Shown piece after piece: positions 7,713-44,758 of a DNA stretch of 60,663 nucleotides. The translations under genes and the position numbers were made by a program. Origin of the DNA: a bacterium (lineage in GTDB: Bacteria; Patescibacteriota; Patescibacteriia; Patescibacteriales; VMTK01); assembly GCA_030693295.1 (NCBI GenBank), contig JAUYAT010000008.1:1-60663 (forward strand), read 5' to 3'. The notes beneath the pieces were generated by a model. It was given only the letters and a program-made list of their open reading frames with translations, had not been told where the DNA came from and ran no database searches. Numbering within the stretch: position 1 is the first letter of the stretch; every line of letters begins with the position of its first letter.

Positions 7713-8643
7713 AAGTATATGCCGCTTTTGATAACTCTCTCATAATTTCTTGGGCCTTTTCTACCCCGCTGCCGCCTTCTACTTCAATCATAACCGTGAT
7801 GAGATACGGACGCTCGGAAACATATACGATTCCGGAGTCAAGAAATGCCTTAGCCTCAAACGCCTCCCCGATTTTATGAGAAAACAAAACTTCTGATGGA
7901 ACTCCTGCTTTTAGAAATTCGTTAAAACTGGTTTGAGAAAGCCAAGTAAGAATTTTTTGGGAGTTTTCGCGGTTTAGATAACTCGCATTGTACAATGCTC
8001 GGAAAATACGGGAATACTCCTTGGCGGTAATATCATAATTTTTATCAAAAAGCTCTTCCATGCCAAGCGCCTCAAATATATCGGTATAATCCTCGCTTGA
8101 AAGATTGCGCACTAAAATCCTATGACTCGTGTTGTCGGAATTAATCAAGGTCTGTTTAAGCAATTCTTCAATCGTGAACTTGGTGCCGGATGGCTTTTTA
8201 TACAATTCGCCGAACTGCTCATCTTTGTCCTCAGAAAAAAGAACAAGTTCGTTTGCGGGTTTCCACTCCCCTTTCTCTATTTTTTTCATTGCCGCAAAGA
8301 CGGTGGGCATCTTACTTAGAGATGCAGGCCAGAAACGTGTGTCTTGGTTTATGGAAACGTTCGCTCCGGTATTCAAAAACTCAAAATAAACGCCGATGCG
8401 ATTCCCGTTTTTTTCATAATCGGCGACTATCCGCTTCATCTCCTTGCGCATGGGTTCTATAGTGCTAAAAAAGTGCTCTTGAGCAATAAAACTTCTCGCA
8501 GGGTCAATCAGGGGGTACGGATTCTTAAATTGCTTTACTGATTCTGAACGGCTTTTATAAACCAAAAACCCAAGAGTTGCGACATTCGTCGCTATCAGAA
8601 AAATTGCAAAAATGATAAAAAATTTTTGTTTAATTTTTATCAT
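7696..8643 (-). CDS. Serine hydrolase, class A beta-lactamase-like
   Basis: 315 aa with an N-terminal TM. Motifs S-x-x-K (SLSK), SDN (NSDN) and a KTG-like HKIG. Overlaps the 7712 start of the downstream gene by 17 nt. Confidence 0.55.
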   Translation of the reverse strand: MIKIKQKFFIIFAIFLIATNVATLGFLVYKSRSESVKQFKNPYPLIDPARSFIAQEHFFSTIEPMRKEMKRIVADYEKNGNRIGVYFEFLNTGANVSINQDTRFWPASLSKMPTVFAAMKKIEKGEWKPANELVLFSEDKDEQFGELYKKPSGTKFTIEELLKQTLINSDNTSHRILVRNLSSEDYTDIFEALGMEELFDKNYDITAKEYSRIFRALYNASYLNRENSQKILTWLSQTSFNEFLKAGVPSEVLFSHKIGEAFEAKAFLDSGIVYVSERPYLITVMIEVEGGSGVEKAQEIMRELSKAAYTYVANN

Positions 8644-8770
8644 AGTTTAAAAGTTTAAAAAATAAAATTAAAAATAATAATTATTCTGCTTTTATTATAC
8701 CATAAATAGCTGTCACTGAAAAAATCAACGATATTATCAAAAAACCTTTTAAGTTATTTTTAAATACTTT

Positions 8771-9003
8771 CCACATTAAAGTTAATAATTATTCCGCTTT
8801 TATTATAACACTTTTTAAATAAAATATAAAAACAGGCAGTCTGTTTGCCTGGGCTAAAAACTTTATCCACCCCGTTAGAAGCAGATCGCCCAGAGGCGAT
8901 CGTAGCCGTGCCTTCAGCAATGCGGCTTCTAACGGGGTCCGCAATTTAGGGCTTGACACAGATTGATAAACTGCTATACTTAAAATGTAGTTACGATGAA
9001 AAG
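8771..9003. repeat. Segmental duplicate copy 1 (carries a 72-nt hairpin insertion)
   Basis: ...ATTAAAGTTAATAATTATTCCGCTTTTATTATAACACTTTTTAAATAAAATATAAAAACAGGCAGTCTGTTTGCCTGGGCTAAAAACTTTATCC...GCTTGACA..TGCTATACTTAAAATGTA matches 9193-9355 apart from the insertion. Confidence 0.8.
8869..8938. mobile_element. ORF-less hairpin element of family P2 (ACCCCGTTAGAAGC...GCTTCTAACGGGGT), MITE-like
   Basis: 14-nt perfect terminal inverted repeats. The paralogous copy at 9283-9292 reads TTTATCCGCA uninterrupted, whereas here TTTATCC[element]CCGCA. Confidence 0.65.
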
Positions 9004-9150
9004 CCCCCTATGAGATTCTGTTCTCATGGGGTTCTTTTCTTTTAGATATACCCTGAATCTCTTGTAATCCAACTTCCAGCCCATTTCTTTGATGGCTAAA
9101 TATAGATTTTGTCCGTCAATAAACGCGTAATTGTTTAAATCCTGTTTCAT
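8980..9150 (-). pseudogene. Truncated NYN-domain gene copy (56-codon remnant)
   Basis: MKQDLNNYAFIDGQNLYLAIKEMGWKLDYKRFRVYLKEK matches the first ~38 aa of 9359..9874. It then diverges into a hairpin (CCCCATGAGAACAGAATCTCATAGGGGG) and stops. Confidence 0.6.
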
Positions 9151-9192
9151 AATTCTATTTACATTCAGATTAAATTATTTTTTAACATTTTT

Positions 9193-9355
9193 CGCATTAA
9201 AGTTAAAAATTATTCTGCTTTTATTATAACACTTTTTAAATAAAATATAAAAACAGGCAGTTTGTTTGCCTGGGCTAAAAATTTTATCCGCATTTTGGCG
9301 CTTGACATTGTTTTTGATTTTGCTATACTTATAATGTATCTATTACGAAACGTAC
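9193..9355. repeat. Segmental duplicate copy 2 (no insertion)
   Basis: See 8771-9003. Shares the module ending GCTTGACA-N16-TATACT. Confidence 0.8.
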
Positions 9356-9358
9356 TGC

Positions 9359-9874
9359 TTAAGGTTCTGTCCTTAGGTGGTGCGTTTTTTTATATTCTAA
9401 TCTTCCCCGCAACTCATTCATAAACTGTATTCTTTCTCTGGCTGTGTGTGTAAGTAAACTTGAACAAAAATTTTTATCTGGACTTAAAACAACTTCTAAT
9501 TTTTTATTTTCATACAAATATTCAACAAGAGAATAGAAATCTCCGTCATTAGATACAACAACAGCTTTGTTATATTCACTCATTTCAATGACGGCTCGCA
9601 AAACCAAATCAGCATCTATATTACCTTTAATTTTGCCATTTAAATCTGGAATTGTCGGTTTAAACTTAAGAATAAATCCTGCTTCCTGCAAACAATCATA
9701 TAATCCTTGATTAAGAGACACAAACCCAATAAACATATAGGCCTTGCTCACCCCATACTTTTCCTTAAGATAAATACGAAAACGGGCATAGTCCAATTTC
9801 CAACCCAAAATCTGAATACCCAGATTCAGATTTTGGCTATCTATAAACGCAAAATTATTTTCTTTTGAAATCAT
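9359..9874 (-). CDS. NYN-domain (LabA/DUF88-like) putative RNase
   Basis: ORF-track 9359..9943; the likely start is MISKENNFAFIDSQNLNLG at 9874. Followed by ...VVVSNDGDFYSLVEYL. Confidence 0.6.
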   Translation of the reverse strand: MISKENNFAFIDSQNLNLGIQILGWKLDYARFRIYLKEKYGVSKAYMFIGFVSLNQGLYDCLQEAGFILKFKPTIPDLNGKIKGNIDADLVLRAVIEMSEYNKAVVVSNDGDFYSLVEYLYENKKLEVVLSPDKNFCSSLLTHTARERIQFMNELRGRLEYKKTHHLRTEP

Positions 9875-9997
9875 ATTTTTATTAATTCGCCGCCAGCGCT
9901 TTTTGAACTTTCGGCGGGAAATTCCAAACCTGCGGAAAACCACTGAATATCCATGCAGTGATTAATAAAAATATAACTGTAATTTTTATTGATTTTC

Positions 9998-10276
9998 TCA
10001 TATTTTGTCTGCGGCCAGCCCCGTTAGAGAAAGGAAGCGTTTCAAACGATTTTTAAGATAGCGCTTGCCGGGACCGGATTTTAAATACCTTTCTCTCGCA
10101 AAAGCATCGCTTTCGTTTTTACAAGCTTCATAATAAATTAATTCAAAAGGACCTCTGCATTTTGTGGCTATAACCTCACTATTATTGTGTTGTTTGAAAC
10201 GCTTCCGTAAATCATTAGTACATCCGGTATACCATCTATCATCCTTTTTGCTTTGTATTACATAAGTATAAAACAT
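9998..10276 (-). CDS. GIY-YIG nuclease family protein
   Basis: 92 aa: MFYTYVIQSKKDDRWYTGCTNDLRKRFKQHN...RERYLKSGPGKRYLK. Confidence 0.75.
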   Translation of the reverse strand: MFYTYVIQSKKDDRWYTGCTNDLRKRFKQHNNSEVIATKCRGPFELIYYEACKNESDAFARERYLKSGPGKRYLKNRLKRFLSLTGLAADKI

Positions 10277-10294
10277 AGTTTTTCTCTAACGGGG
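10019..10294. mobile_element. GIY-YIG gene bounded by P2-family terminal inverted repeats (candidate autonomous element)
   Basis: CCCCGTTAGAGAAA at 10019-10032 and TTTCTCTAACGGGG at 10281-10294 form a perfect 14-nt inverted repeat. CCAG sits directly outside both ends (10015-10018 and 10295-10298). Confidence 0.55.
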
Positions 10295-10347
10295 CCAGCC
10301 GCTAAAAATCCAGCCCGCTGTCATTGAAAAAATCAGCGACATTATTA

Positions 10348-10414
10348 ACCCCGTTAGAAATATGCCTCTTTTTGATGATTTTGCCATAGTTAGATGTTTA
10401 TTTTCTAACGGGGT
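10348..10414. mobile_element. ORF-less P2-family hairpin element
   Basis: ACCCCGTTAGAAA...TTTCTAACGGGGT, 67 nt, 54 nt from the GIY-YIG-containing copy. Confidence 0.6.
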
Positions 10415-10452
10415 AAAATTATTTTTTAACATTTTTCCCGTTAAAGTTAAAA

Positions 10453-11067
10453 TTATTCAAGGCTGAATTTTATCAGCGCTTTTTTAACCTTTGCGTCGCT
10501 AACTGCAAAACCGGGCGAAAATTCAACTTCTTCTTGATAATCAATGTCTTTAAAGTAAGCCAATTGCTCCCGAAAAATTCTTTCGTTAAACTCATTTTTA
10601 AAAATATCCTTGGATCTTGCGACTATTTTTTTTATAGAATGATATTTATTGATTATAAAATACAAATCAACATAATCTTTCCATTTTGCCCGCCTGCCCA
10701 AAGCGTAAGCTTTCATCGCCGCCAATGTCAACAAATCCGGCATTCTTAAAGTTTTTTCAAAATGCTTTGAAAATTCAATTTTAAACGGGTAATGAAAAAA
10801 AGTGAATTGCACCTTATTCACAAAGAAAGTGAACTGCCCGGCCTCGTCTTTATATACTTTGCCGATCTTATAGCCGCTTTTTATTATCAGCTTCCTGATC
10901 TTGCCGTTATTAAAATCCCTGTTGGAAAACAAATCAAAATCAATTGACCGCCTATGGCCGATCTGCAAAGCGATGGCGGTTCCGCCGACTAAACCAAAAT
11001 CTTTAATAAATTTTTTCACCAGCGGCAATAATTCAGCTTGTTCTTTTGTTAATACTTCTTGGCGCAT
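10453..11067 (-). CDS. Nucleotidyltransferase, AbiEii/AbiGii toxin family-like
   Basis: Likely start MRQEVLTKEQ at 11067. FGLVGGTAIALQIGHRRSIDFDLFS is the family's N-terminal NTase motif. Confidence 0.65.
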   Translation of the reverse strand: MRQEVLTKEQAELLPLVKKFIKDFGLVGGTAIALQIGHRRSIDFDLFSNRDFNNGKIRKLIIKSGYKIGKVYKDEAGQFTFFVNKVQFTFFHYPFKIEFSKHFEKTLRMPDLLTLAAMKAYALGRRAKWKDYVDLYFIINKYHSIKKIVARSKDIFKNEFNERIFREQLAYFKDIDYQEEVEFSPGFAVSDAKVKKALIKFSLE

Positions 11068-11323
11068 ACTTATTAAAATAAAGAGTAAAAAAATGTTTTG
11101 TTTTTTCAATATAATTCTGCCTGCCGATTTCAGACGGTTTTGATTTGGCGCGGAAAATTTTCGCGGTTTTTTTCATTCCCAAAATTTTAATCATTTCCTG
11201 CACGTCGTCCCAATCGCCGTAATTTAAAACATGCTCCACGATTGATTCTTCGGAGAGCTTGTCCAAATTTTTTACGTACCAAATCAAATACGGCCTTTTT
11301 TTTATGAATTCATGGATGGTCAT
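11033..11323 (-). CDS. Small upstream partner of the AbiEii-like NTase (putative antitoxin)
   Basis: 96 aa. Its 3' end overlaps the NTase gene by 35 nt, which suggests translational coupling. No motif recognised. Confidence 0.4.
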   Translation of the reverse strand: MTIHEFIKKRPYLIWYVKNLDKLSEESIVEHVLNYGDWDDVQEMIKILGMKKTAKIFRAKSKPSEIGRQNYIEKTKHFFTLYFNKYAPRSINKRTS

Positions 11324-11343
11324 ACGTTAATTATACTAAAAAT

Positions 11344-14112
11344 TTACGGTAAAATCAACTGCCCTTTTAATTTCGCGAGCTCCTCTTGCCATAATTTCAG
11401 CTTGTCTTTTTCTTGCTTTACAATCCGCGCCGGCGCTTTTTTAATAAACTCTTTATCGGCTAATTTTTTTTCAGTATTAACAATTAATTTTTCTAAATTC
11501 TCACGTTCTTTTTTTATTCTAATTTTTTCTTTTTCTTCATCAACGGCGCCGATTAGATAAATTTCAATATCGGCAACAGCAATATAAATAGCGTCTTTAT
11601 GAACAGGACATTGTCCTGTTCCTACAATATTTAATTCCTTAATTCCTGTTCGCAGATTTTTAATTAAATGCTCCTGGGATTTGATTAATTTAGCATTCTT
11701 TCCTCCGTAAATTACCGCCTTGATTTTCCGCGCCGGCTCAATTTTGTTTTCCGCCCGCGCGTTGCGGATGGCGATGATAATATTTTTAATCAACTCAAAA
11801 TTACCTGAGGGCTTGCCCGCCGTAGCCTTGGCGAAGGCGGGCCATTTTTCAACCATTAATAAACTATCCTTATCCATCTCGCGCCATATCGCTTCCGTCA
11901 CGAACGGCATAAACGGATGCCAAAGCTTTAACAAGTTTTCCAAAACCATTAATAACACTTGCTGTTTCGCTTCGCTTTTTTCAAACTTGCTCGCTTCCAA
12001 ATGCCAATCAGCAAAATCGCTCCAGGTAAATTCCCGCAATTTTTCTCCGGCCTGCGAAAACCTGTAATTACCCAAATCTTCCGAAACATCTTTTATTAAA
12101 TTTTGCAATTTCTCCAATATCCACTCATCGGCAAGCGTTAAATTTTGAATTTTGAATTGCAACTTTGAACTTTGCCTGCCCCGCTGTGCGTTGCGCGGCC
12201 GGGGAACTTTGAACTTTGAACTTTGTAAAACATATCGCGCGATATTCCAAAGCTTATTGGTAAAATTCCTGAAGCCGGCTATTTTTTCCTCGCTTAACCG
12301 CAAATCATTTCCCGGAGTATTTCCGATTACCAAAGACAAGCGAACGGCATCCGTGCCGAATTTCTCAATCACATCAAGCGGATCAATGCCGTTGCCTTTT
12401 GACTTGCTCATTTTCTTGCCATACTTGTCCAAAACCATTCCGTGCAAATAAACATTTTCAAAAGGTATTTCCCGCAAAGCGAATAAAGACATCATTATCA
12501 TGCGCGAAACCCAGAGCGTAAGAATCTCATACCCCGTTTCCAAAACTTGCGTTGGATAAAAACGCGCCAAATCCCCTGACTTTTTTCCATTTTTAAATGT
12601 ATCCGGCCAGCCCAATGTGGAAAAAGTCCACATCCCGGAAGAAAACCAAGTGTCTAATGTATCTTCATCCTGCGCCCACCCTTCTCCTTCCGGCGGTTCA
12701 ACGCCCACATAAATTTCCTGATTTTCTAAATTATTTATTTTATCTTCAACTTTTAACTTTTCACTTTTAACTTTTAACTTATTTCTGTACCATACCGGTA
12801 TCCGATGCCCGAACCAAATCTGCCTGCTAATACACCAATCATGCAAATTTTCCATCCAGTCCAAATATCTTTTTTCAAACTTTTCCGGAATAAATTTAAT
12901 TTCTTTGTTTTTAGCCGCTTCAATCGCTTTTTCTTTTAATGATTTTCCGTTAAACCGCTTTAATTTTTTATTAACATTTACAAACCACTGTTTTGACGGC
13001 AACGGCTCTATGGGAGTATTGCACCTGTAGCAAACAGACAAATTATTTTCTATCTCTTCCTCTTTTTCCAGCAGATTATTTTTTCTTAATTTTTCAATAA
13101 TCATATCCCGCGCTTGTTCAACCGTCTTGCCTGAATATTCTAAAAAATTATTGTTAATTTTTCCATCCTCGCCGATAACTTTTATAATTTCCAAATCATT
13201 CGCTTCCGCCATCTGCCAGTCAGCCATAGAATGCGCCGGAGTAACGCCCAATGCGCCTGTTCCAAAATCCATTTCAACATGCCGATCCGCTATAATTTTC
13301 AGTTTTAATTTTATCCCGACAAAATCCACTTCATAAATCTTGCCAATATATTTTTTGTATCTTTTGTCTTTTGGATTAACCGCCACTGCCGTATCGCCAA
13401 GCTTGGTTTCCGGCCGCGTTGTGGCGATAGCGAAAGGAAAATCATAGCTATATTTGAAAGTGTATAATTTCGCTTTTTGATCCTTGTATTCCACTTCGTC
13501 GTCAGCCAATGTTGAATGGCATCGCGGGCACCAATTAACAACTCGCTCTCCCCTATAAATTACTCCTGCTTCATACATATCAACAAACATTTTTTTAACC
13601 GCTTTTTCTCTTGGCTCATCCAATGTAAACGCTTCGCGCGACCAATCCAAAGAAGCTCCCATTTTTCTTGTTTGGCGCAAAATAATGGATTGCGTCTCTT
13701 TTAAAAATTCCCAAACTCGCTCAAGAAATTTTTCCCTGCCTAAATCATGCCGTGTTTTACCTTCTTCTTTTAATAATTTTTTTTCAACAACATTCTGCGT
13801 GGCAATAGCCGCGTGGTCCGTTCCGGGAAGCCAAAGCGCGCGATATCCTTTCATCCTGTGATAGCGAATCAACAAATCTTCTATGGCAAGCATTGAAGAA
13901 TGCCCCAGATGCAATTTGTCGGTAATGTTTGGCGGCGGTAAAACAATAGTATAGCTTGGCGCGTTTTCAGGCAAATCCAAATTATCCGGATTAAAAAAAC
14001 CGGATTTCTCCCACTTTTTATATATACCATCCTCATATTGAGATGGATCGTACGCTTTTGGCAATTCTTGCTTCATATTTACAACATTACCAAAATTAGC
14101 CATATTTGACAA
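11344..14112 (-). CDS. valS: Valine--tRNA ligase
   Basis: 922 aa with PPPNITDKLHLGHS (HIGH-type) and KMSKSKGN motifs and a C-terminal coiled coil. An alternative start, MKQELPKAYDP, is at 14076. Contains repeat insertions (see repeats). Confidence 0.9.
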   Translation of the reverse strand: MSNMANFGNVVNMKQELPKAYDPSQYEDGIYKKWEKSGFFNPDNLDLPENAPSYTIVLPPPNITDKLHLGHSSMLAIEDLLIRYHRMKGYRALWLPGTDHAAIATQNVVEKKLLKEEGKTRHDLGREKFLERVWEFLKETQSIILRQTRKMGASLDWSREAFTLDEPREKAVKKMFVDMYEAGVIYRGERVVNWCPRCHSTLADDEVEYKDQKAKLYTFKYSYDFPFAIATTRPETKLGDTAVAVNPKDKRYKKYIGKIYEVDFVGIKLKLKIIADRHVEMDFGTGALGVTPAHSMADWQMAEANDLEIIKVIGEDGKINNNFLEYSGKTVEQARDMIIEKLRKNNLLEKEEEIENNLSVCYRCNTPIEPLPSKQWFVNVNKKLKRFNGKSLKEKAIEAAKNKEIKFIPEKFEKRYLDWMENLHDWCISRQIWFGHRIPVWYRNKLKVKSEKLKVEDKINNLENQEIYVGVEPPEGEGWAQDEDTLDTWFSSGMWTFSTLGWPDTFKNGKKSGDLARFYPTQVLETGYEILTLWVSRMIMMSLFALREIPFENVYLHGMVLDKYGKKMSKSKGNGIDPLDVIEKFGTDAVRLSLVIGNTPGNDLRLSEEKIAGFRNFTNKLWNIARYVLQSSKFKVPRPRNAQRGRQSSKLQFKIQNLTLADEWILEKLQNLIKDVSEDLGNYRFSQAGEKLREFTWSDFADWHLEASKFEKSEAKQQVLLMVLENLLKLWHPFMPFVTEAIWREMDKDSLLMVEKWPAFAKATAGKPSGNFELIKNIIIAIRNARAENKIEPARKIKAVIYGGKNAKLIKSQEHLIKNLRTGIKELNIVGTGQCPVHKDAIYIAVADIEIYLIGAVDEEKEKIRIKKERENLEKLIVNTEKKLADKEFIKKAPARIVKQEKDKLKLWQEELAKLKGQLILP
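11815..11842. repeat. GC-rich hairpin inside valS (GCCCGCC-N14-GGCGGGC)
   Basis: GCCCGCCGTAGCCTTGGCGAAGGCGGGC encodes ...AFAKATAGKP.... A related, longer copy lies in the endoQ-like gene at 22084-22173. Confidence 0.7.
12141..12226. repeat. Family H hairpin with heptamer flanks inside valS
   Basis: (AATTTTG)2..(AACTTTG)2-CCTGCCCCGCTGTGCGTTGCGCGGCCGGGG-(AACTTTG)3, with the core at 12173-12204. Translated as KFKVPRPRNAQRGRQSSKLQFKIQN. Confidence 0.85.
12748..12782. repeat. Heptamer tandem array (AACTTTT x5) inside valS
   Basis: AACTTTTAACTTTTCACTTTTAACTTTTAACTTAT, translated as KLKVKSEKLKVED. Confidence 0.85.
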
Positions 14113-14161: not shown

Positions 14162-15316
14162 ATGTTAACCCAGGAACAGCAAATTTTTGAACAAATCAAA
14201 AAAGCCAATAACATATTAATCACTTTCCGCAAAACATGGAACGGCGATTCCGTGGCATCCGGCTTGGCTATGTTTTTATTTTTAAAAAAATTGGGCAAAG
14301 AAGTTAACATTGCCGCGGAAAAATTCGACTCGGGCAAGCTGTTTTCTTTTTTGCCCGCGTATAATGAAATAAAAAACTCCATAGATAACCTGCGCAAATT
14401 TATTATTTCTCTGGATATCACCAACACTAAAGTTGACCAGATAAAATACAAAATGGAAGACAACACTCTGAATTTCATCATTTCGCCCAAAGACGGCTTA
14501 TTCACCGAGGATGACATTTCTTCGCGCTCAAGCGGCTTTAAATACGATTTGATCATCGCGCTTGATACGGCTGATTTGGAATCTTTGGGGCAAATTTATG
14601 ACAACGACACCGAGTTTTTCTATAAAACCCCCATTATCAACATTGACCACCATTCCGAAAACGAAGAATTCGGCCAGATTAATTTTATTGAGCTTACCGC
14701 CGTGGCAACCGGCGAAATTTTATTTTCGCTTTTTGAAAGCTATTCCCGCGACTTGATTGACGAAGATGTCGCCACCTGCCTTTTGGCCGGAATGATTTCC
14801 AAAACCAGAAGCTTTAAAACTCCGAACGTAACCCCGAAGGCGCTGCTGACCGCCTCTCAGCTGATTTCAATGGGAGCGCGCCGCGAAGAAATCGTTAATC
14901 ATCTCTACCGCTCGCGGCCGATTAATGTCTTAAAGCTTTGGGGAAGAGTATTGGCGCGTCTGTCCAGCTCCCAGGACGGCAAACTGGTTTGGTCAACCTT
15001 GACTAACATGGATTTCGCCAAAACCGAATCGTGTGAAAAAGATTTGGACGATGTGATTGACGAATTGATTATCAATATTCCGCAGGCCAAAATCGTTGTT
15101 ATAATTTATGAAAAAACAGGCGCGGAAGCAACGGAACCGATAACCAATATTTTGGCGTATTCCGTGAAAAATATCAACTCGCTTAATTTAATAAAAGAAT
15201 ACAATCCGCAAGGGACGAAAGATTTGGCGCTGGCTTCAATCAACAAGCCGATACAGGAAGCGGAAAAGGAAATATTGAAATTAATAGAAGAAAAATTAAG
15301 CAAGCTGCCGATATAG
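14162..15316 (+). CDS. DHH/DHHA1 phosphoesterase (NrnA-like)
   Basis: 384 aa with NIDHHSENEEFG (DHH motif) and an N-terminal ...NGDSVASGLAM motif. Confidence 0.7.
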   Translation: MLTQEQQIFEQIKKANNILITFRKTWNGDSVASGLAMFLFLKKLGKEVNIAAEKFDSGKLFSFLPAYNEIKNSIDNLRKFIISLDITNTKVDQIKYKMEDNTLNFIISPKDGLFTEDDISSRSSGFKYDLIIALDTADLESLGQIYDNDTEFFYKTPIINIDHHSENEEFGQINFIELTAVATGEILFSLFESYSRDLIDEDVATCLLAGMISKTRSFKTPNVTPKALLTASQLISMGARREEIVNHLYRSRPINVLKLWGRVLARLSSSQDGKLVWSTLTNMDFAKTESCEKDLDDVIDELIINIPQAKIVVIIYEKTGAEATEPITNILAYSVKNINSLNLIKEYNPQGTKDLALASINKPIQEAEKEILKLIEEKLSKLPI

Positions 15317-15390: not shown

Positions 15391-15464
15391 GGGCGCATAG
15401 CTCAGCTGGTTAGAGCACGGCTCTTATAAAGCCGGGGTCGATGGTTCGAGTCCATCTGCGCCCA
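15391..15464 (+). tRNA. tRNA-Ile, anticodon UAU
   Basis: Hand-folded cloverleaf: GGGCGCA TA GCTC AGCTGGTTA GAGC A CGGCT CTTATAA AGCCG GGGTC GATGG TTCGAGT CCATC TGCGCCC A. The anticodon loop CT-TAT-AA gives TAT. Confidence 0.8.
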
Positions 15465-15477
15465 CTAAAAAATTCAT

Positions 15478-15506
15478 TTGACATGAATTTATAAAAAATA
15501 TATAAT
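15478..15506 (+). promoter_or_regulatory. Consensus sigma70-type promoter
   Basis: TTGACA (15478-15483), exactly 17 nt, then TATAAT (15501-15506). It lies 27 nt upstream of the 15533 ORF. Confidence 0.7.
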
Positions 15507-15532
15507 TAAAGCATAAAGATAAAATAACTAAA

Positions 15533-15757
15533 ATGTTATTTATGAGTATGGACAAAGAACCGACAAATTACGAAATATTGGAAGCCGTTAATAAATTTGC
15601 GACTCATACCGAAGAGCAATTTCAGGAAATCAAATCGGAAATTGGCGGCATGAAATCGGAAATTGGCAGTATAAAAGCTTTAATGGTAACTAAAGATTAT
15701 TTGGATGAAAAAATATTCACGATGCGCGGCGATATAATCGCGGTGATAAAACAATAA
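15533..15757 (+). CDS. Small coiled-coil protein, function unknown
   Basis: 74 aa with the internal duplication EIKSEIGGMKSEIGSIK. Promoter upstream and terminator downstream. Confidence 0.5.
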   Translation: MLFMSMDKEPTNYEILEAVNKFATHTEEQFQEIKSEIGGMKSEIGSIKALMVTKDYLDEKIFTMRGDIIAVIKQ

Positions 15758-15870
15758 AAACTTCCGCATCAACCACTTGATAAAAATATTATACAAAAAC
15801 GGCGCGCTGAATAAAGATGAAGCTGAAAAGCTGGTTGCGATACAATAAACTTTATCGCGATACAAAAAAA

Positions 15871-15896
15871 CAATCCACCCGAGGCGGATTGTTTTT
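15871..15896 (+). terminator. Intrinsic terminator
   Basis: CAATCCACC-cga-GGCGGATTG followed by TTTTT. Confidence 0.65.
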
Positions 15897-16052
15897 ATTT
15901 TTTATTATTAATTGTCCACTCTAATTTTAAAACTTTCTTTAGCTTGAATCCGCAAATCGCTTTGCGAACTTAAGAAAAGAGAGGATGGTTTTTTTGTTGA
16001 ACCGTTAGCAGAAAGCCCATCCTCTCAAAACTTTACTTTCTGCTTAGAGAGA

Positions 16053-16268
16053 TCAAATGTGATGACCACATTCCTGGCATTCCATTTCTTGCCAAGATTT
16101 TTGCGACAAGAAATTACTGCAATTGTCGCAAAAATCAGCTCCCTTTTGCATCATGGCATAATGTGCCATGATGTCGCCCGAATATTGATTGCCATAGCAA
16201 TCAATTGCAATTGGAGTATTCGGGTGCTCCATTGCCAGCTTATTCATTACATCTGTTATTTTTTTCAT
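16053..16268 (-). CDS. Small zinc-ribbon-like protein (two CxxC pairs)
   Basis: 71 aa with CDNC...CQECGHHI. Strong SD (GGAGGAGAGGAGAG) directly upstream. Confidence 0.55.
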   Translation of the reverse strand: MKKITDVMNKLAMEHPNTPIAIDCYGNQYSGDIMAHYAMMQKGADFCDNCSNFLSQKSWQEMECQECGHHI

Positions 16269-16397
16269 CTCTCCTCTCCTCCTCGCCCCGTGGGGCTTTC
16301 TTATTTTTTTTATTTGACTGCCAATTGAATTTCCAAAACAGCGGAAACTTAATAGGTAGCCAAATTGCTATCTTTCAAATTTTAATTTCAAAGAACA

Positions 16398-16481
16398 TCC
16401 GCTTTCGTCCTGCCGCTTGTCCGCCGAAGCTCGGCGTAGGCGGGGACTCATCAGTCCCGATATACATCGGAAGAGCGGAGG
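16398..16481 (-). ncRNA. Hammerhead self-cleaving ribozyme, type III topology
   Basis: Minus-strand RNA: CCUCCGCUC^UUCCGAU-GUAU-AUCGGGA-CUGAUGA-GUCC..(extended helix II, GCCGA-GCU-UCGGC tip)..GGAC-GAA-AGCGGA. All core positions are present: C3 U4 G5 A6 U7 G8 A9, G12 A13 A14, A15.1:U16.1, C17. Helix I is 7 bp with a GUAU loop. Helix III pairs CCGCU with AGCGG (plus a U-A). Predicted cleavage lies between the complements of 16473 and 16472. Confidence 0.8.
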
Positions 16482-16736
16482 TTTTTCATGGAAAAACCTT
16501 AAACCGTTTTAATAAAGAACCAAACCCCGAAGGGTTGCAGGGCGCCTGACAGAGCTAAACATTATTTAGTTATCAAACGTTATTTTCTTTCCCCAACTTA
16601 CCTGCTGTAATTGAGGACGGATTTGCAGTCATTATATCCGCAACTTCGCATATCCTTTTTAGGACGATATGCTATCCTTGCCAATTCTTTTTCTTTCAAC
16701 ACATCATCAATTGGCGCCAGAGAGGATTTAAAATAA

Positions 16737-17165
16737 TCATAATTTTTTGCAAATCATTTTTAATCTTCTAACGGCAGGGGATAACGCCTCTGTCTGCTGA
16801 AGAATGACTGCCTTCCTTGCCTGAATCTCAACTAATGATCCAGACAAGGGAATATTCGCGACCAGGCCTGGGATTGCGGAAACAATCTCCCTCGCCGCGG
16901 ACAGATTATTCATCTGTCTGACTTCGGGAGATTTTTGGAAGAATGGTTTTAACGCATCCTCCCAAATTTTAATCCGTAGTTTTCTATCAATATCATCTCT
17001 CCAATAATCATGGAGGATAAACATCATGGCCTGCCTGGCATTCTCGTAATCTCCGCCGCAGGCAGGCAGCACATGTTTGCGGAAATAATTCTTAATAACC
17101 CGAGGCTTATCAATCCTCCCTATTTGCGACAATATGTCACTTGCTTTAATTCTTATTGGCTCCAT
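16737..17165 (-). CDS. Hypothetical protein, 142 aa
   Basis: Strong SD (AAGGAAGGAGGAAG) upstream. No motif recognised. The start is overlapped by a 23-codon mini-ORF (17146-17217). Confidence 0.5.
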   Translation of the reverse strand: MEPIRIKASDILSQIGRIDKPRVIKNYFRKHVLPACGGDYENARQAMMFILHDYWRDDIDRKLRIKIWEDALKPFFQKSPEVRQMNNLSAAREIVSAIPGLVANIPLSGSLVEIQARKAVILQQTEALSPAVRRLKMICKKL

Positions 17166-17421
17166 TTTTCTTCCTCCTTCCTTTTGTTTTTATTTTACTG
17201 ATAATTTTTTTACTCATTTTTTCCTCCTTATCTTTTTATTTAAACTGTCAAAAACAGTTTTATGTCAAAGAACAATATCTTACTGAAACCACTATATTAA
17301 ATAATGATCTCGGTGAGATGGGCAGAGTTATTTAAACCCTGCCCAAATAAATCTGAACTTTTTTTGGTGTTGTTTCCCCTTTATCCTAAGCACACCTTTA
17401 CTTAGGAGAGGATAAAAAGAT

Positions 17422-18312
17422 CTATTTCAGCACCGACCGGACATAGTCTAGATCGGCTTTGTCGCCGGTAAGTATCACCCGGAAAGGCGCGCCTGACCCG
17501 AGACCGAAAGTCTGAACTAAATTCAGATCCTTGCGATCGGTGGCTACCACGACGATCGGCTCGTTGTTTTGGGCCGAGGTTGTAGAAACTACGACGACAG
17601 GGGCTTTTTTATAGCCCCTTACCAGCAAGCTAGTTAAGTCAACCCCGCCTTGGCCTTCGGGCACATCCGTGTAAACAACGCCCGGGACCAATTCGGTCAG
17701 CCGGTCAAATGCGGTGTTGGTTGCTACTTCCAGCGCTGGATATATAGCCGCGCGCTTAGTGACGAGTAGTGATTCCACACCGGTTATCAGCTCCTCAATG
17801 AAAGCAGATTGCACTGCTTCAACTGCCTGCCTGTCGCCGTTCTGCAGGGCAACAAGCGCGACCTTAAATGCGGAGTTGTACCGCGTAGATAGCGCGATTG
17901 CCGCATATTCGGTTGGCCGGTCGCAAGCATTAGCCGCTGCGGCCCACTCGGCCGGAACGTCAAAGCCGTACTCGGCCATAAGTGTCGGGCAACTCGGCGC
18001 CGTCGGATCGTATATGAATCGATCGCCGAGAATTTCAGCAAGTGCCTCACCTCCGGCATGATGGTCAATCCACATGACGATGTATTCAGCGTTCCGTCGC
18101 GTCCAATCGAGCGTCGCCTGCGGATTCTTATTATCGACTGCTATGTCGACGATGACTGTCTGGCCGGCGAGATCCGGCAATTTGTGGAGCAAAAACGGTT
18201 GAGTCGTAATTAACTTCCCCTCCGCTCCTGCCTTCCTGCAAACCGCGGCGGCGATTGTTCCGTCGCCGTCGCCATGGGCGATGATAGTTGTTTCTGGTGC
18301 GAATTTTTTCAT
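17422..18312 (-). CDS. Divergent DHH-family phosphoesterase-like protein, GC-rich gene
   Basis: 296 aa with IIAHGDGDGTIAAAV (DHH motifs I/II), VIVDIAV and WIDHHAG (DHH). Visibly more GC-rich than its neighbours. SD AAAGGAGAG upstream. Confidence 0.55.
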   Translation of the reverse strand: MKKFAPETTIIAHGDGDGTIAAAVCRKAGAEGKLITTQPFLLHKLPDLAGQTVIVDIAVDNKNPQATLDWTRRNAEYIVMWIDHHAGGEALAEILGDRFIYDPTAPSCPTLMAEYGFDVPAEWAAAANACDRPTEYAAIALSTRYNSAFKVALVALQNGDRQAVEAVQSAFIEELITGVESLLVTKRAAIYPALEVATNTAFDRLTELVPGVVYTDVPEGQGGVDLTSLLVRGYKKAPVVVVSTTSAQNNEPIVVVATDRKDLNLVQTFGLGSGAPFRVILTGDKADLDYVRSVLK

Positions 18313-18549
18313 TTTTCTCTCCTTTTCTTCTTTTTTTTATTTTACCCAAAGGGCAATGAGCTAAATACCTAAAAAAGATATTCACCTTATTGCCCCTTGT
18401 CGTTTCAAAGAACATCCACTCAACAACCGGATAAAATAATGAAGAAGAATTTTAAATTTTTTGCTATTAACGAGCTTTACTTAATTACTTTATCTCATTA
18501 GCAAGATTTCCATCTCCTCCATTATTTTAGCCGCTTGTTTTAATAAATT

Positions 18550-18578
18550 ACTATATCACATACTTAAAAGTTTGTCAA
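18550..18578 (-). promoter_or_regulatory. Sigma70-type promoter for the three-gene minus-strand operon
   Basis: On the minus strand: TTGACA (18578-18573), 17 nt, TATAGT (18555-18550). About 230 nt upstream of the 18312 start. Confidence 0.6.
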
Positions 18579-18663
18579 GGTTTTTTGGAATAAAAGTAAT
18601 AATTTTTTCTTTGAAATTAGCCAAAAAATAATTTTCTTATTTCTAATATTTTCTCTTATCTTT

Positions 18664-18761
18664 ACCCCAGTTAAATAAAGCCGCTGATGAAGTTGGTGGT
18701 TAAAGATAAGTCGCAGTTGGTGGTCTAAAGCCACCAACAAGCGACACCTATTTAACGGGGT
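18664..18761. mobile_element. P2-related hairpin element (ACCCCAGTTAAATA...TATTTAACGGGGT)
   Basis: 12-bp terminal stem with one bulge. The interior hairpin is GTCGCAGTTGGTGG-tctaaag-CCACCAACAAGCGAC. Lies 42 nt upstream of tRNA-Val. Confidence 0.5.
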
Positions 18762-18802
18762 TTACTTTTCTAAAATATGTGCTAAATTATTAATATGCCT
18801 TG

Positions 18803-18879
<77 letters not shown>

Positions 18880-24562: not shown

Positions 24563-25309
24563 TTATTTTAATAGCTCCCACAGCCGCGAAAAAATTATTT
24601 TTTGCGTTTCATAAATCATTTTATTTTCAATAATCACTCCGATCGGCATGGCTTTCGCGTCCCTTGAAATAAAAGCGCATTTTCCGAAATAAATAAAAAT
24701 AAAAGTCGCCGATTCTTCGTGCGCGCCAAGCCAGCGGCGCTCGTCAAGGCCATGCGTTTTTCCTCCTTTCGCCAGAGCGATTGCTTTAACGCGAATTTTT
24801 TTTCTGATTCTTTTTTTGGTAAAATCGGGATAGGCATTATTAATGTCATCGCTGGCATTGGTGGCGGAATAAATATAATATTCCCGCTCGTCTTCCTTTT
24901 GCTTTTCCATTACGGACAGCAAATCGTCCAAAATCAGCTTAATGCCGGCTTTTGCTTCGTAAAATTTAACGGTCGGCTTTTCGCCCTTCTTGTCTTGCAG
25001 AGATTTTAATTCGGGAATTAATTCAATAATTTTATTTTTGACTTCGTTTAATTCAATTTCCTTGTCTTTCGCCAGTTTTAACAATCTTTCCGGATCTTCG
25101 GCGACAAATCTCTGCTTGGTTTCATGGTGATAATAGCTTACTAAGCCGACCTCCTGCAGCTTCTTTAATATATCATAAGCCGTCCCTCTGTTTAAGCCGG
25201 TAACTTCCGCCAAGCTCCTGACCGAAGCGGCGCCATACTGCAAAAGTTTTAAATATACGGCTGCTTCCTTGTCGGATAAATTAAGTTTTTTTAATATCGC
25301 AATGTCCAT
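24563..25309 (-). CDS. TrmB-family transcriptional regulator
   Basis: 248 aa: LSDKEAAVYLKLLQYGAASVRSLAEVTGLNRGTAYDILKKLQEVGLV (wHTH). Confidence 0.7.
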   Translation of the reverse strand: MDIAILKKLNLSDKEAAVYLKLLQYGAASVRSLAEVTGLNRGTAYDILKKLQEVGLVSYYHHETKQRFVAEDPERLLKLAKDKEIELNEVKNKIIELIPELKSLQDKKGEKPTVKFYEAKAGIKLILDDLLSVMEKQKEDEREYYIYSATNASDDINNAYPDFTKKRIRKKIRVKAIALAKGGKTHGLDERRWLGAHEESATFIFIYFGKCAFISRDAKAMPIGVIIENKMIYETQKIIFSRLWELLK

Positions 25310-26036: not shown

Positions 26037-26768
26037 ACTTGTTGCCAAGTGTATGGACTATACCATCACCCCGGTTGTACCGGGGGGTCGACGTGTTAGC
26101 GCTCCAATTATACTGGAACACTCTCTCCATTTAAGGATCAGTCTCTACGGGGTTAAATTATGTCTTTTACGCTTCTTTGAATAATTCAATTCTCTAAATT
26201 TATCTATTAACTCTGCCAATTTATTAAAATCTTCTCTGCTTTTCACTCTATTTTTCTGGTTTAATATTTTTATCATTAAACCGGCCTGTTCTTTCTTTAA
26301 GATTAAATATGGCTTTATTAATTTCAAGAATTTTATTATTTCATCTCTTCTATTAATGGTATATTCTAATATACCATCATTTCTTTCACGTATATAACCG
26401 CAATCTATTAAAGAGCAAATTTTCTTAAAATTCTCAGATTCTTTTTTGGATTGGAAAAGTATAATATAAGGCGATACCTGAAATCCATACTTGTAAGTAG
26501 GATTTGGTTTCAGTCTTACGTAAATACTTCCGTCGCCATCAAGAAATCCGGCCAAATACGCTCTTTTTGTTGTGGTTATAAGTTTAGACATAATCAACTT
26601 CCCTCGGTATTATCCTAACATATGACAGGTTGAAATGCAAATTTATATGATAGGACTTCACCGATATGAGTCGACTTTTTCAATCCCGCATTACTGCGGG
26701 ATGCCGCCGTTATTGATGTCTCCTCGGGTTCAGATGGTTCAAGAGCCGAATAAAAAATCAGCTTCTGA
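26037..26768 (-). mobile_element. Group I-type intron in 23S rRNA at the I-CreI (L2593-equivalent) site
   Basis: The exon sequence GGGTTCAGACCGT (ending at the complement of 26769) resumes as CGTAAGACAGGTCGGTCTCC (complement of 26036 downward). The joined exons match the conserved GGGTTyAGAACGT|CGTGAGACAGTTCGG block. The 5' exon ends in U and the intron ends in G. Confidence 0.6.
26145..26597 (-). CDS. LAGLIDADG homing endonuclease, single-motif I-CreI family
   Basis: 150 aa. YLAGFLDGDGSIYVRLKPNPTYKY...GYIRERNDG...FLKLIKPYLILKKEQAGLMIKIL parallels I-CreI (YLAGFVDGDGSIIAQIKPNQSYKF...GYVRDRGS...FLTQLQPFLKLKQKQANLVLKII, from memory). Confidence 0.85.
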   Translation of the reverse strand: MIMSKLITTTKRAYLAGFLDGDGSIYVRLKPNPTYKYGFQVSPYIILFQSKKESENFKKICSLIDCGYIRERNDGILEYTINRRDEIIKFLKLIKPYLILKKEQAGLMIKILNQKNRVKSREDFNKLAELIDKFRELNYSKKRKRHNLTP

Positions 26769-26791
26769 ACGGTCTGAACCCAGCTCGCGTG

Positions 26792-26831
<40 letters not shown>

Positions 26832-26835
26832 TCAC

Positions 26836-26868
<33 letters not shown>

Positions 26869-27394
26869 GAACCACGCCGTCGCTGTGGACGCTCGGGCGT
26901 GACTAGCCTGTTATCCCCGGAGTAGCTTTTATCCGATGAGCTTCCGCCGTCCTATATCGCACGGTCGGATCACTAAGTTCCGCTTTCGCGACTGCTCGAC
27001 TAGTAGGTCTTGCAGTAAAGCTGGCTTATGCCTTTACGCTATCTTCCGGATTTCCATCCCGGAATAGCCAACCTTTGTAAACGCCTCCGTTACCTTTTGG
27101 GAGGCATCCGCCCCAGACAAACTACCCACCAGACACTGTCCTCCCGCCTGATTCAAGGCTGGGAGTTAGAATTAAAAGCATACAAGGGTGGTATCTCACT
27201 GTTGAGCCGGTAAACCGGCTCTCCCACCTATGCTGAACATGCATACCCCTAATCCAATGTCAAGCTATAGTAAAGCTTCACGGGGTCTTTTCGTCCAACT
27301 ATGGTTAACGAGCATCTTTACTCGTCCTGCAATTTCGCCGAGTCCTTCGTTGAGACAGTACCCAAGTTGTTAAGCCATTCGTGCAGGTCGGAAG

Positions 27395-27443
<49 letters not shown>

Positions 27444-28176
27444 GCGTTCATCCGCGCTTCGGTTCAAAGCTTCGCCCCGCATTGCTGCGGGACTAACCTC
27501 TCCCCTTAACGTTCGGACACTGGCCAGGCATCGCCCCCTATACATCCTCTTACGAGTTAGCAGGGAGCTGTGTTTTTGATAAACAGTCACTTGAGTTCTT
27601 TAGCTGCGGCCCCGGTAAACCGGGGCAGGCCTTATCTCGAAATTACGGCCGCTGTTTTGCCGAGTTCCTTAACGAAGGTTCTCTCGTACACCTGAGGCTT
27701 CTCGCCTCGCTCACCTGTGTCGGTTTGCGGTACGGTTATTATCGCGTTAGCCCTAGAGGTTTTTCTGGGCAATCTATCAGCTTGAATTGGCTCCGCCGAA
27801 GCTTTGCCTTTTGACAGCCTTGTTTGATTGGTGATCCGGATTTGCCTGAATCATCAAACTTGGCAATCAACGCTCATACCATAAAAACGCTCAAACCTTT
27901 AAATTGCGTCCCCCCATCGGAACACAATAATAGTGCTGGAATATTAACCAGCTCATCCATCGACTACCCGCGCATTACACACGGCTCGCCTTAGGACCGA
28001 CTAACCCTGGGTTGATTTTCATTGCCCAGGAAACCTTAAGCTTTCGGTGAGCCGGTTTCTTACCGGCTTTAATGCTACTCATGCCAACATTCTCTCTTCT
28101 GTCCGCTCCACCATGCCTCGCGACACAGCTTCAACGCCGGACAAAATGCTCCTCTACCACGCCGCTGCTCCGCATT

Positions 28177-28268
28177 GGCACGCTGATGGCACGCTGATGG
28201 CACGCTGACAAAACACTGAAAATAATCAGCGTAAAATCCGCGTTGTAATCGGCGTAAAATCCGCGTGT
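28177..28268. repeat. Tandem-repeat-containing expansion segment inside 23S rRNA
   Basis: GGCACGCTGAT x3 (28177-28208) and ATC(A/G)GCGTAAAATCCGCGT(T)GT(A/C) x2 (28225-28268). The two repeat types are partly complementary (ACGCTGAT/ATCAGCGT). Confidence 0.75.
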
Positions 28269-44585: not shown

Positions 44586-44690
44586 AAAAAAGGTCTCCCG
44601 TCGGCGGTAACCCTTTCGGATCACCCGATGCCCTTTCGGGCAAAGACCACTTGCATAGCGCCGATCAGAAGACCGTCTCTATGCAAGTGG
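44586..44690 (-). promoter_or_regulatory. Structured 5' leader (attenuator or riboswitch-like) ending in a U6 tract
   Basis: Minus-strand RNA: a 12-bp hairpin CCACUUGCAUAG-N20-CUAUGCAAGUGG, then GGUCU-[GCCC GAAA GGGC]-[UCGG GUGAUCC GAAA GGGUUAC CG CCGA]-CGGG-AGACC-UUUUUU. The first hairpin's loop contains a second GGUCU. Confidence 0.4.
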
Positions 44691-44724
44691 ATTTTCAACC
44701 ATGCCTTAAACAAGGGTTAGGTTT

Positions 44725-44758
44725 ACCCTGTTAGATAATTCATCATATCTAATAGGGT
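44725..44758. mobile_element. Miniature P2-related hairpin (ACCCTGTTAGATA-N8-TATCTAATAGGGT)
   Basis: 13-nt arms with one mismatch. The terminal motif resembles ACCCCGTTAGA. Confidence 0.4.

Follow-up and report, generated by a model that had tools for sequence, protein, structure and literature searches.

The window analysed here, a 60,663-nt stretch of contig JAUYAT010000008.1 (assembly GCA_030693295.1, positions 1 to 60,663), originates from an uncultured bacterium, probably of the candidate phyla radiation (CPR) type, and contains, between a tRNA-Ile(TAT) and a tRNA-Val(GAC) gene, an island in which a candidate hammerhead ribozyme is located within a short minus-strand operon. The operon comprises, in order, genes for a 296-amino acid (aa) DHH-family phosphoesterase, a 142-aa protein and a 71-aa protein, with the ribozyme situated between the last two, and it faces a plus-strand unit encoding a 74-aa protein (Table 1). 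The tRNA brackets, the four open reading frames (ORFs), the two promoters, the Shine-Dalgarno sites, the hammerhead and a hairpin element next to tRNA-Val, all of which had been described in an original prediction made from the sequence alone, were found where that prediction had placed them. Its statement that the island is devoid of integrase and phage structural genes was also borne out by searches against PHROGs, PADLOC and Pfam, and a repeat scan revealed no direct repeat of a tRNA end or tRNA-derived att-like repeat at the island. Composition is mixed, with the DHH gene at 55% G+C, some other parts at 29-35% and the window at ∼41%. A separate Logan assembly (L147, run SRR13727537) matches the window at 100% identity over 15638-18690, which shows that the gene order did not arise as a chimera in the window assembly. 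A second Logan contig of 3.1 kb (L006), which spans the same tRNA-Ile/tRNA-Val locus in a relative, provides the comparison on which much of what follows depends.

Promoter-like sites are not enriched in the region, and the two listed in Table 1 are the sole near-perfect ones, such that the minus strand has a single strong promoter and no other good one. The plus-strand unit has the TTGACA-17-TATAAT promoter originally ascribed to it, matching the consensus at 12 of 12 positions, and ends at a bidirectional terminator hairpin that also terminates the minus-strand operon and is conserved in L006. Shine-Dalgarno sequences of the three minus-strand cistrons (AAGGAG for the DHH gene, GGAAGGAGG, and GAGGAGG for the 71-aa gene) are as strong, and the untranslated stretches upstream of the cistrons (∼230, 256 and 468 nt) as long, as had been noted at the outset. 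Terminators are present only past the last cistron, save for a terminator-like hairpin at 16536-16523. The first operon terminator shares 80% identity with L006 positions 2911-3068, where it is located directly after the DHH stop codon. The 5′ leader of the transcript contains a long hairpin that sequesters a GGAGGAGAUG stretch and may constitute a regulatory leader. This hairpin is ∼97% identical to that of L006, with G-U changes only, whereas synonymous sites in the adjoining DHH gene differ far more (pS 0.52); strong constraint on the leader or an exchange of the DHH allele would each account for this.

Table 1. Features of the island and its borders, with positions in the window unless a related locus is named
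Feature	Position	Strand	Basis and remarks
tRNA-Ile(TAT), left border	15391-15465	+	ARAGORN; Rfam tRNA, 72 bits; 98.5% identity to L006 end
Promoter of 74-aa unit, TTGACA-17-TATAAT, 12/12	15478-15506	+	Consensus scan
74-aa coiled-coil-like ORF	15533-15757	+	ORF list
Bidirectional terminator hairpin, AAAAACAATCCACC/GGCGGATTGTTTTT	15862-15905	both	Inverted repeat I17, terminator scan; U tracts on both strands
First operon terminator, GAGAGGATGG...CCATCCTCTC then TTTTCTT	15972-16026	-	Inverted repeat I9
71-aa orphan protein, last cistron	16053-16268	-	ORF list; CDNC and CQEC pairs (Zn-ribbon-like)
Leader of 71-aa cistron	16269-16397	-	Starts GGAUGUUCUUUGAAA (motif 16396-16385), ends GAGGAGG
Type III hammerhead ribozyme (putative)	16479-16398	-	Minimum free energy fold, descriptor scan, core check
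Hammerhead stem III, UCCGCU/AGCGGA, 6 bp (+3), open	16479-16474 / 16403-16398	-	
Hammerhead stem I, 7 bp, loop GUAU	16472-16466 / 16461-16455	-	
Hammerhead core CUGAUGA	16454-16448	-	
Hammerhead stem II, 4 bp plus extension	16447-16407	-	
Hammerhead core GAA	16406-16404	-	
Hairpin AACCCUUCGGGGUU then UGGUUCUUUAUUAAAA, terminator-like	16505-16536	-	Terminator scan; fourth GUUCUUU copy
RNA-like element, three hairpins	16591-16672	-	P1 16672-16648, P2 16641-16617, P3 16616-16591
142-aa near-orphan protein, all-helical	16737-17165	-	ORF list, homologue search, AlphaFold2
Leader of 142-aa cistron	17166-17421	-	GUUCUUUGACA at 17273-17262; upstream ORF 17217-17146
296-aa divergent DHH/DHHA1-fold phosphoesterase, anchor gene	17422-18312	-	ORF list, Pfam, AlphaFold2, Foldseek; 55% G+C
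Modular leader of DHH cistron	18313-18421	-	GAGUGGAUGUUCUUUGAAA (motif 18413-18402), ∼22-bp hairpin (18398-18343), UUUGGGUAAAAUA, A-rich tract, AAGGAG
Long hairpin of 5′ leader, arms 18539-18513 / 18448-18422	18422-18549	-	Inverted repeat I2; 27-nt arms, 85% complementary
Operon promoter TTGACA-17-(TG)-TATAGT, 11/12, TG extension	18578-18550	-	Consensus scan; kept in L006
97-bp hairpin element, inverted termini ACCCCGTTAAATA/TATTTAACTGGGG	18665-18761		Next to tRNA-Val; not in L006
tRNA-Val(GAC), right border	18803-18879	+	ARAGORN, Rfam
GUUCUUU(R)AAA motif, window	18413-18402, 17273-17262, 16520-16509, 16396-16385	-	
GUUCUUU motif, relatives	L006 1397, 1913; L139 144, 494, 1608; L014 381; L011 4510		
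GUUCUUU motif, L001	7110, 8079, 9039, 10188, 11881, 11919		

The hammerhead lies on the sense strand exactly between the 142-aa and 71-aa cistrons. Its core is complete (C3 U4 G5 A6 N7 G8 A9 and G12 A13 A14), as are the flanking A15.1-U16.1 (A16403-U16474) and G10.1-C11.1 (G16447-C16407) pairs, and position 17 is occupied by a C, i.e. not G, at 16473, from which cleavage would be predicted after C17, between C16473 and U16472. The unconstrained minimum free energy (MFE) and centroid folds both correspond to the canonical three-way junction, with loops capping stems I and II and an open stem III (-37.3 kcal/mol; fold z = -2.6). Stem II spans 41 nt, is interrupted by two internal loops and ends in an apical 6-bp hairpin. 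A descriptor scan of the 60-kb window identified this as the sole good hammerhead, and no match with stems of at least 6, 4 and 5 bp arose when the whole window was shuffled 300 times with its dinucleotides preserved (∼36 Mb, both strands); a loose descriptor yielded 0.41 matches per shuffled window. The hammerhead claimed in the original prediction is upheld by the complete core, the MFE junction and the absence of a comparable match in the shuffles, and the motif can be considered convincing, with cleavage predicted. The ribozyme forms part of a 124-nt segment flanked by copies of a GUUCUUU motif at 16520 and 16396, and occupies the spot where the other cistron junctions show a plain hairpin.

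Comparison with L006 revealed that the locus is made up of parts that persist and parts that do not. Identity between the two sequences amounts to 98% at the tRNA ends, 88% across the promoter and 5′ leader, 80% in the terminator region, and 79% (nucleotide) or 82% (amino acid) for the DHH gene, interrupted by five indels. The tRNAs, promoter, leader, DHH gene and terminators are common to both. Present in the window only are the 399-bp 74-aa unit (15466-15864, promoter and ORF) and, in the gap between the DHH stop codon and the terminator, a 1.38-kb block (16043-17421) with the 142-aa gene, a further RNA element, the hammerhead and the 71-aa gene. Conversely, three ORFs that separate the promoter from the DHH gene in L006 (165, 85 and 96 aa) are missing from the window, and all three are orphans without a Pfam match. 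The comparison therefore indicates that the locus is a hot spot with turnover of small genes around a stable framework of promoter, leader, DHH gene and terminators. The accessory nature originally suggested for the island is borne out by this variability, the relative keeping the tRNAs, promoter, DHH gene and terminator and carrying different small genes. The 1.38-kb block is bounded by an imperfect 15-nt direct repeat (CTCTCCTAAGTAAAG / CTCTCTAAGcagaaaGTAAAG, at 17410-17396 and 16052-16031 on the minus strand), which may be a recombination footprint.

The 296-aa protein is a genuine, if divergent, member of the DHH superfamily. The Pfam DHH profile (PF01368) scores 22.0 bits against a gathering cutoff of 28.1 (E = 2e-4), and matches 23 of 33 family members at E<=0.01. 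These 33 homologues are the family as found in 5.8 billion clustered sequences; those with names belong to the Patescibacteria lineages Moraniibacteriota, Falkowbacteria, Saccharibacteria, Berkelbacteria and Paceibacter, together with one Bathyarchaeia metagenome-assembled genome. In the 33-member alignment D15 and D17 of HGDGDG are conserved in at least 90% of sequences, as is D83 of the DHH motif, and D56, H84, H85 and D131 (in ANACDRP) are invariant. The AlphaFold2 model is of high confidence (pLDDT 95.6, pTM 0.88), and its top 46 Foldseek matches in the PDB are all DHH-superfamily proteins, the best being PggH (7d62; E = 6.4e-10, TM 0.60), followed by NrnA and PAP phosphatase; viral DHH phosphohydrolases also match structurally, and the C-terminal domain aligns with DHHA1 proteins. 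The earlier description of this protein as a divergent DHH-like phosphoesterase accordingly holds. The two-domain fold (Foldseek probability 1.0), the DxD, D, DHH and D motifs and the size of ∼300 aa are shared with PggH (7d62), NrnA (5j21, 8iu7) and archaeal PAP phosphatase (8a8k), but identity to these is 12-17%, and the family differs from known DHH/DHHA1 enzymes in that its 33 known members derive almost entirely from CPR metagenomes.

Judging by the modelled fold, the most likely substrates of the enzyme would be short linear or cyclic (oligo)nucleotides, as for PggH and NrnA. Two observations weigh against this guess: the Pfam DHHA1 profile matches none of the 33 members, and the substrate-binding GGGH motif found in DHHA1 domains of the PggH/NrnA/PAP phosphatase type is replaced by GSGAPFR (G-x-G-S-G-A-P-F-R in the family), without the His. 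The gene is under purifying selection (dN/dS of 0.12-0.13 against the two closest relatives) and is therefore functional, and in 7 of 12 loci it is 9-18 points richer in G+C than its flanks, consistent with repeated horizontal transfer. The family is absent from 2.9 million IMG/VR viral contigs, and none of the DHH, 74-aa and 142-aa proteins had a tBLASTn match in 50,697 phage genomes. An ordinary NrnA-like DHH protein is encoded at 14162-15316 (+), directly left of tRNA-Ile (Pfam DHH, 48.5 bits), and hence the island enzyme represents an extra paralogue, of a different clade.

Among the parts of the operon, only the DHH gene recurs in other genomes. Family members occur in about ten different contexts, none of which includes the 142-aa or 71-aa partner or a hammerhead, e.g. 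together with a 143-aa orphan inserted between pilB and pilC (L144, 5349-6401), beside an AEP-TOTE helicase (L140) or beside ClpB (L005), and the closest relatives, L006 and L139, likewise have the DHH gene without either partner or ribozyme. The only recurring partners are a Zn ribbon, as a loose link, and a TrmB-type regulator. The former is seen as a C-terminal CxxC...CxxC extension of the DHH protein in P0009 and P0011 (columns 410-447 of alignment A1) and as a 54-aa ORF directly after the DHH gene in L001; the latter is divergent from the DHH gene in four loci (L001, L003, L011 and the P0005 contig). Kinship of the 71-aa protein with the L001 Zn ribbon was considered and dismissed, with no detectable similarity between the two (E = 0.25). 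The window also has a TrmB-family gene, at 24563-25309 (-), with a GTTCTTT (25371) 15 nt past a perfect TTGACA-17-TATAAT promoter. This gene is 6 kb off and only 25-29% identical to the DHH-adjacent TrmB proteins, and was not counted as an instance of linkage.

The small proteins of the island have few or no relatives. Two homologues of the 142-aa protein (P0036 and P0037) were found among 1.8 billion representatives, with the N-terminal ∼90 residues in common, and both are encoded on short contigs without a DHH gene (L014 and L015). Its AlphaFold2 model is helical and of low confidence (pLDDT 68), and Foldseek returned no match to it below E = 2. No homologue of the 71-aa protein besides itself was found in 5.8 billion clustered sequences, and its matches in Pfam are limited to sub-threshold Zn-ribbon/C1 hits. 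The 74-aa ORF, which contains a 21-nt tandem repeat encoding KSEIGG/KSEIGS, has no family match above noise in Pfam, PHROGs or NCBIfam. PADLOC gave no match at E<=1 with any of the four island proteins, and PADLOC, PHROGs and NCBIfam together nothing usable. Additionally, a 23-codon Lys-rich upstream ORF (MSKKIISKIKTKGRRKKNGANKN, 17217-17146, minus strand) with its own AAGGAGG site overlaps the start of the 142-aa gene in another frame.

The leaders of the three minus-strand cistrons share a sequence module. The string TGTTCTTTRAMA occurs three times in the 60-kb window, against 0.1 expected, in each case on the minus strand and at the start of a cistron leader, and GTTCTTT occurs 16 times in sense and never in antisense orientation (1.4 expected) in five related operons (window, L006, L139, L001 and L014). 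Its usual place is just 3′ of a hairpin, 50-110 nt upstream of a start codon; in the window and L006, GUUCUUU is followed by a hairpin of ∼22 bp and then by UUUGGGNARAAUA. The leader of the DHH gene is 95.5% identical to that of a different gene (96 aa) in L006, and the hairpin is maintained in a paralogous leader of L006 by four compensatory pairs. In L014, the hairpin and motif seen at 16505-16536 also precede the 142-aa homologue. By analogy, the leaders may be sites at which a host RNase processes or stabilises the transcript, i.e. a form of RNA punctuation; a U-rich terminator tail or a recombination site are alternatives. The analogy is with saePQRS of Staphylococcus aureus, in which a 24-bp helix downstream of the site directs RNase Y to cleave between saeP and saeQ (PMC5449607). 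Here, too, an intercistronic A/U-rich site is located within a few nt of a helix of more than 20 bp, and the expected outcome, by analogy only, would be unequal stability of upstream and downstream cistrons. Unlike the island, where 7-12 nt of GUUCUUURAAA are conserved, the sequence at the saePQRS cleavage site is unimportant (PMC5449607). A role for GUUCUUU as a promoter -35 element was rejected, given that the implied -10 boxes are poor and the promoter scan finds none there, and more than 120 single matches of viral contigs to the 15-mer GGATGTTCTTTRAAA were judged to be due to chance for so short a pattern and disregarded. In L001, positions 6940-12100, downstream of the Moraniibacteriota DHH homologue, harbour an array of small orphan ORFs including the 54-aa Zn ribbon, separated by 70-80-nt intergenic elements that are each repeated three times and consist of a terminator-like hairpin, two more hairpins and GUUCUUU, with no Rfam match.

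A second structured RNA is suggested 3′ of the 142-aa gene. The element consists of three hairpins, of which the P2 and P3 loops are complementary by eye (CUGC/GCAG), and recurs after both 142-aa homologues (L014 ∼1150-1242, L015 ∼625-700). A pattern scan of metagenomes located it again in L017 (1330-1395) and L018 (47-110), where the gene before it encodes an unrelated 146-aa Cys-rich protein and the rest of the locus is syntenic with L015, indicating that the element is tied to the cassette slot and not to a protein family. RNAalifold predicts two conserved hairpins with three compensatory pairs. With three or four distinct sequences available, the case for a conserved structured RNA is suggestive, not proven. 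A downstream CCUGC, beside an AACCC...GGGUU hairpin, could feasibly compete with the P2/P3 loop pairing. Rfam returned no match to the element at gathering score or E<=10, and an attC-like reading of its CCCTAAC...GTTAGGG hairpin was discarded, the 11-nt spacing being far below that of attC. Upstream of the variable gene and RNA element, L017 (167-617) and L018 (793-1243) have what appears by eye from the translations to be a HicA/HicB-like pair, and in L018 a homologue of the 165-aa cassette protein of L006 is located ∼1.2 kb beyond it.

Taken together, it seems fairly likely that the island is an accessory hot spot in which one transcript carries the DHH gene as cargo, a hammerhead cuts before the last cistron, and small genes are swapped via the leaders. 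The strong sigma-70-type promoter would drive a single minus-strand transcript, starting near 18543, comprising a structured 5′ leader, the DHH gene, the 142-aa gene with its 3′ RNA element, the hammerhead and the 71-aa gene, and ending at two terminators (16026-15972 and 15896-15866). Cleavage in vivo would leave the upstream fragment, with the DHH gene, the 142-aa gene and the RNA element, with a 2′,3′-cyclic phosphate end, and the 71-aa mRNA would begin with a 5′-OH and the folded ribozyme, such that the last cistron would be decoupled from the upstream RNA in both stability and translation. The other junctions would be punctuated by GUUCUUU, a long hairpin and an A-rich Shine-Dalgarno region, to which the hammerhead would be a self-sufficient alternative. 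The DHH gene would represent horizontally acquired, selected cargo, and the small genes lineage-specific passengers traded by recombination at or near the repeated leaders. A bolder extension, which we regard as tentative, is that the hammerhead is just one interchangeable punctuation mark in an undescribed system, present in some CPR bacteria, of exchangeable small orphan-gene cassettes anchored by the rare DHH gene. Each cassette would open, strand-specifically, with GUUCUUURAAA, a ∼22-bp hairpin, UUUGGG and an A-rich Shine-Dalgarno region, and some would close with a structured RNA such as that at 16672-16591; these modules would direct processing by a host RNase or a ribozyme and supply homology for cassette exchange.

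A number of results weigh against the hot-spot account. L006 is the sole syntenic relative found, and L147 is an identical copy and not a second independent genome. When the window, the island, a 376-nt stretch and 15 related loci were searched with Rfam at gathering score and at E<=10, no ribozyme was found in any of them, and RF00008 and the other hammerhead families failed to match even the 376-nt stretch, probably because stem II is long, with a 33-nt insertion. No relative of the hammerhead was found in the fetched loci or pattern scans except in the identical L147; descriptor scans of all other related loci gave spurious matches only, and the pattern CTGATGAGTCC...GGACGAAAGC had a single, unrelated match (L016) among viral contigs. 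Since no homologous copy is available, the hammerhead is without covariation support. The long interrupted stem II might impair the loop-loop contacts required for fast cleavage, and the hairpin at 16536-16523 could halt many transcripts short of the ribozyme.

The lack of an Rfam match and of a homologous copy elsewhere, a fold z of merely -2.6 and the frequency of loose descriptor matches in shuffled windows would all be compatible with the hammerhead being a chance match or a dead, non-cleaving relic within a long structured spacer. This seems highly improbable, however, when CUGAUGA, GAA, A15.1-U16.1, G10.1-C11.1 and C17 are all intact on stems of 7, 4 (extended) and 6 bp, and the motif, without a counterpart in the 300 shuffles, has a sense-strand place exactly between two cistrons. 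A different question is whether the DHH enzyme, the 142-aa protein, the ribozyme and the Zn-ribbon protein are one interdependent module, for example with a role in defence, counter-defence or nucleotide signalling; the original prediction had proposed an accessory module and called any such role pure inference. The common promoter and terminator, the loose DHH/Zn-ribbon link (the P0009 and P0011 extensions and the 54-aa ORF of L001) and the ability of DHH/DHHA1 enzymes to degrade immune second messengers, e.g. cyclic oligoadenylates (PMC7841402, PMC8284326), are in keeping with such a module. Against this, the 71-aa protein has no homologue and no detectable similarity to the L001 Zn ribbon, neither of the two 142-aa homologues has a DHH gene on its contig, and L006 and L139 carry the DHH gene without partners or hammerhead. 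The genes are, then, unlinked in relatives, the ribozyme-bearing trio does not recur, and a defence, counter-defence or signalling role is without direct support, PADLOC included; the absent co-occurrence largely refutes the module, which is accordingly considered improbable. What stands of that earlier reading is an accessory, variable island with a DHH enzyme and a ribozyme, and not a dedicated three-gene module.

The tRNA flanks, heterogeneous composition, orphan cargo and inserted small hairpin element could also be explained by decay of a mobile element or prophage at a tRNA attachment site, with the hammerhead and orphans as phage cargo, particularly as bacterial hammerheads are often found near prophage integrases (PMC3088659). 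Of the characteristics of a tRNA-integrated island or prophage, presence/absence polymorphism and atypical composition were indeed observed, but an integrase and an att repeat were not: there is no phage gene or PHROGs match, no direct repeat of a tRNA end, and no member of the DHH family in the viral contigs and phage genomes searched. Moreover, the promoter, DHH gene and terminator recur at this very site in L006, and the core of the locus is therefore older than the split of the two organisms. On balance a prophage origin appears unlikely. A further idea is that the GUUCUUU leaders are themselves DNA recombination sites, analogous to integron attC, with the hammerhead segment as a small inserted cassette. 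Boundaries of the indels between the window and L006 adjoin motif copies, the 95.5% identical leader precedes the DHH gene in one and another gene in the other, the 124-nt hammerhead segment has a motif copy on either side, and the block at 16043-17421 is bounded by the imperfect direct repeat. Yet no recombinase gene is present in or near any of the loci, the motif misfits the attC core (GTTRRRY / RYYYAAC) and is also found 15 nt past the promoter of the unrelated TrmB gene, and plain homologous recombination between similar leaders gives the same pattern, such that dedicated recombination sites appear improbable.

The hairpin element at the tRNA-Val border folds strongly (z = -5.1) and has termini in common with three other hairpins of the window, substantiating the element that was originally recognised there. 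The four copies (8869-8938, 10348-10414, 44725-44758 and 18665-18761) have the termini ACCCCGTTAGAA...TTCTAACGGGGT and unrelated interiors, and the island copy was lately gained or lost, because it is missing from the syntenic L006. Inverted termini, a long hairpin, copies within the window and presence or absence among relatives are shared with repetitive extragenic palindromic (REP) and miniature inverted-repeat transposable element (MITE)-like repeats, from which the copies differ in sharing 12-13-nt termini alone, with unrelated interiors and no known transposase. Elsewhere in the window, an AbiEii-type nucleotidyltransferase toxin gene (10453-11109, minus strand) and an NYN-domain gene (9359-9943, minus strand) are located amid the hairpins at 8869-8938 and 10348-10414, and the region 9359-11109 looks like another accessory patch. 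A LOOT RNA (72.6 bits; 44606-44723, minus strand) adjoins the hairpin at 44725-44758, and the 23S rRNA gene (26717-29631, minus strand) has inserted segments relative to the bacterial model.

Genomic hammerheads of bacteria have been reported to flank single genes or short gene blocks of inconstant identity, to cut polycistronic RNA in vitro, and to have a stem II often reduced to 2 bp (Perreault et al. 2011, PMC3088659), and their biological role is still termed elusive (PMC6765202). A full-text search of the literature for papers that deal with hammerhead ribozymes in Patescibacteria or the candidate phyla radiation returned none. The island ribozyme resembles those of Perreault et al. (2011) in its full consensus core, its sense position between two obscure small genes, its changing gene partners and the expected splitting of a polycistronic mRNA. 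It differs in being single, as opposed to a pair or triple flanking a gene, in having no integrase or phage genes nearby, in its uncultured, probably CPR-type host, and in being a type III ribozyme with a 41-nt interrupted stem II that is invisible to the Rfam hammerhead models. The island likewise recalls integron cassette arrays, with a row of small, mostly orphan ORFs on the same strand behind one promoter, a repeated structured element per ORF and content that varies among close relatives; unlike these, it has no IntI integrase, its GTTCTTT elements precede the ORFs on their 5′ side and take in the ribosome-binding region, and there is no match to the attC core.

Curated covariance models evidently overlook hammerheads that look bona fide but have long insertions in stem II, and ribozyme counts in uncultured lineages are therefore probably too low. 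Neither the DHH family, nor the GUUCUUU leader module, nor the 3′ RNA element carries an annotation. With a single ribozyme in a short operon that has a defined promoter and terminators, the locus offers an unusually clean test of the role of bacterial hammerheads, for which the closely related locus without the ribozyme block provides a natural comparison. If the cassette system outlined above were to prove real, the leader module and the 3′ element would constitute new classes of RNA motif, and the locus would offer a handle on why self-cleaving ribozymes are found amid variable orphan genes in bacteria.

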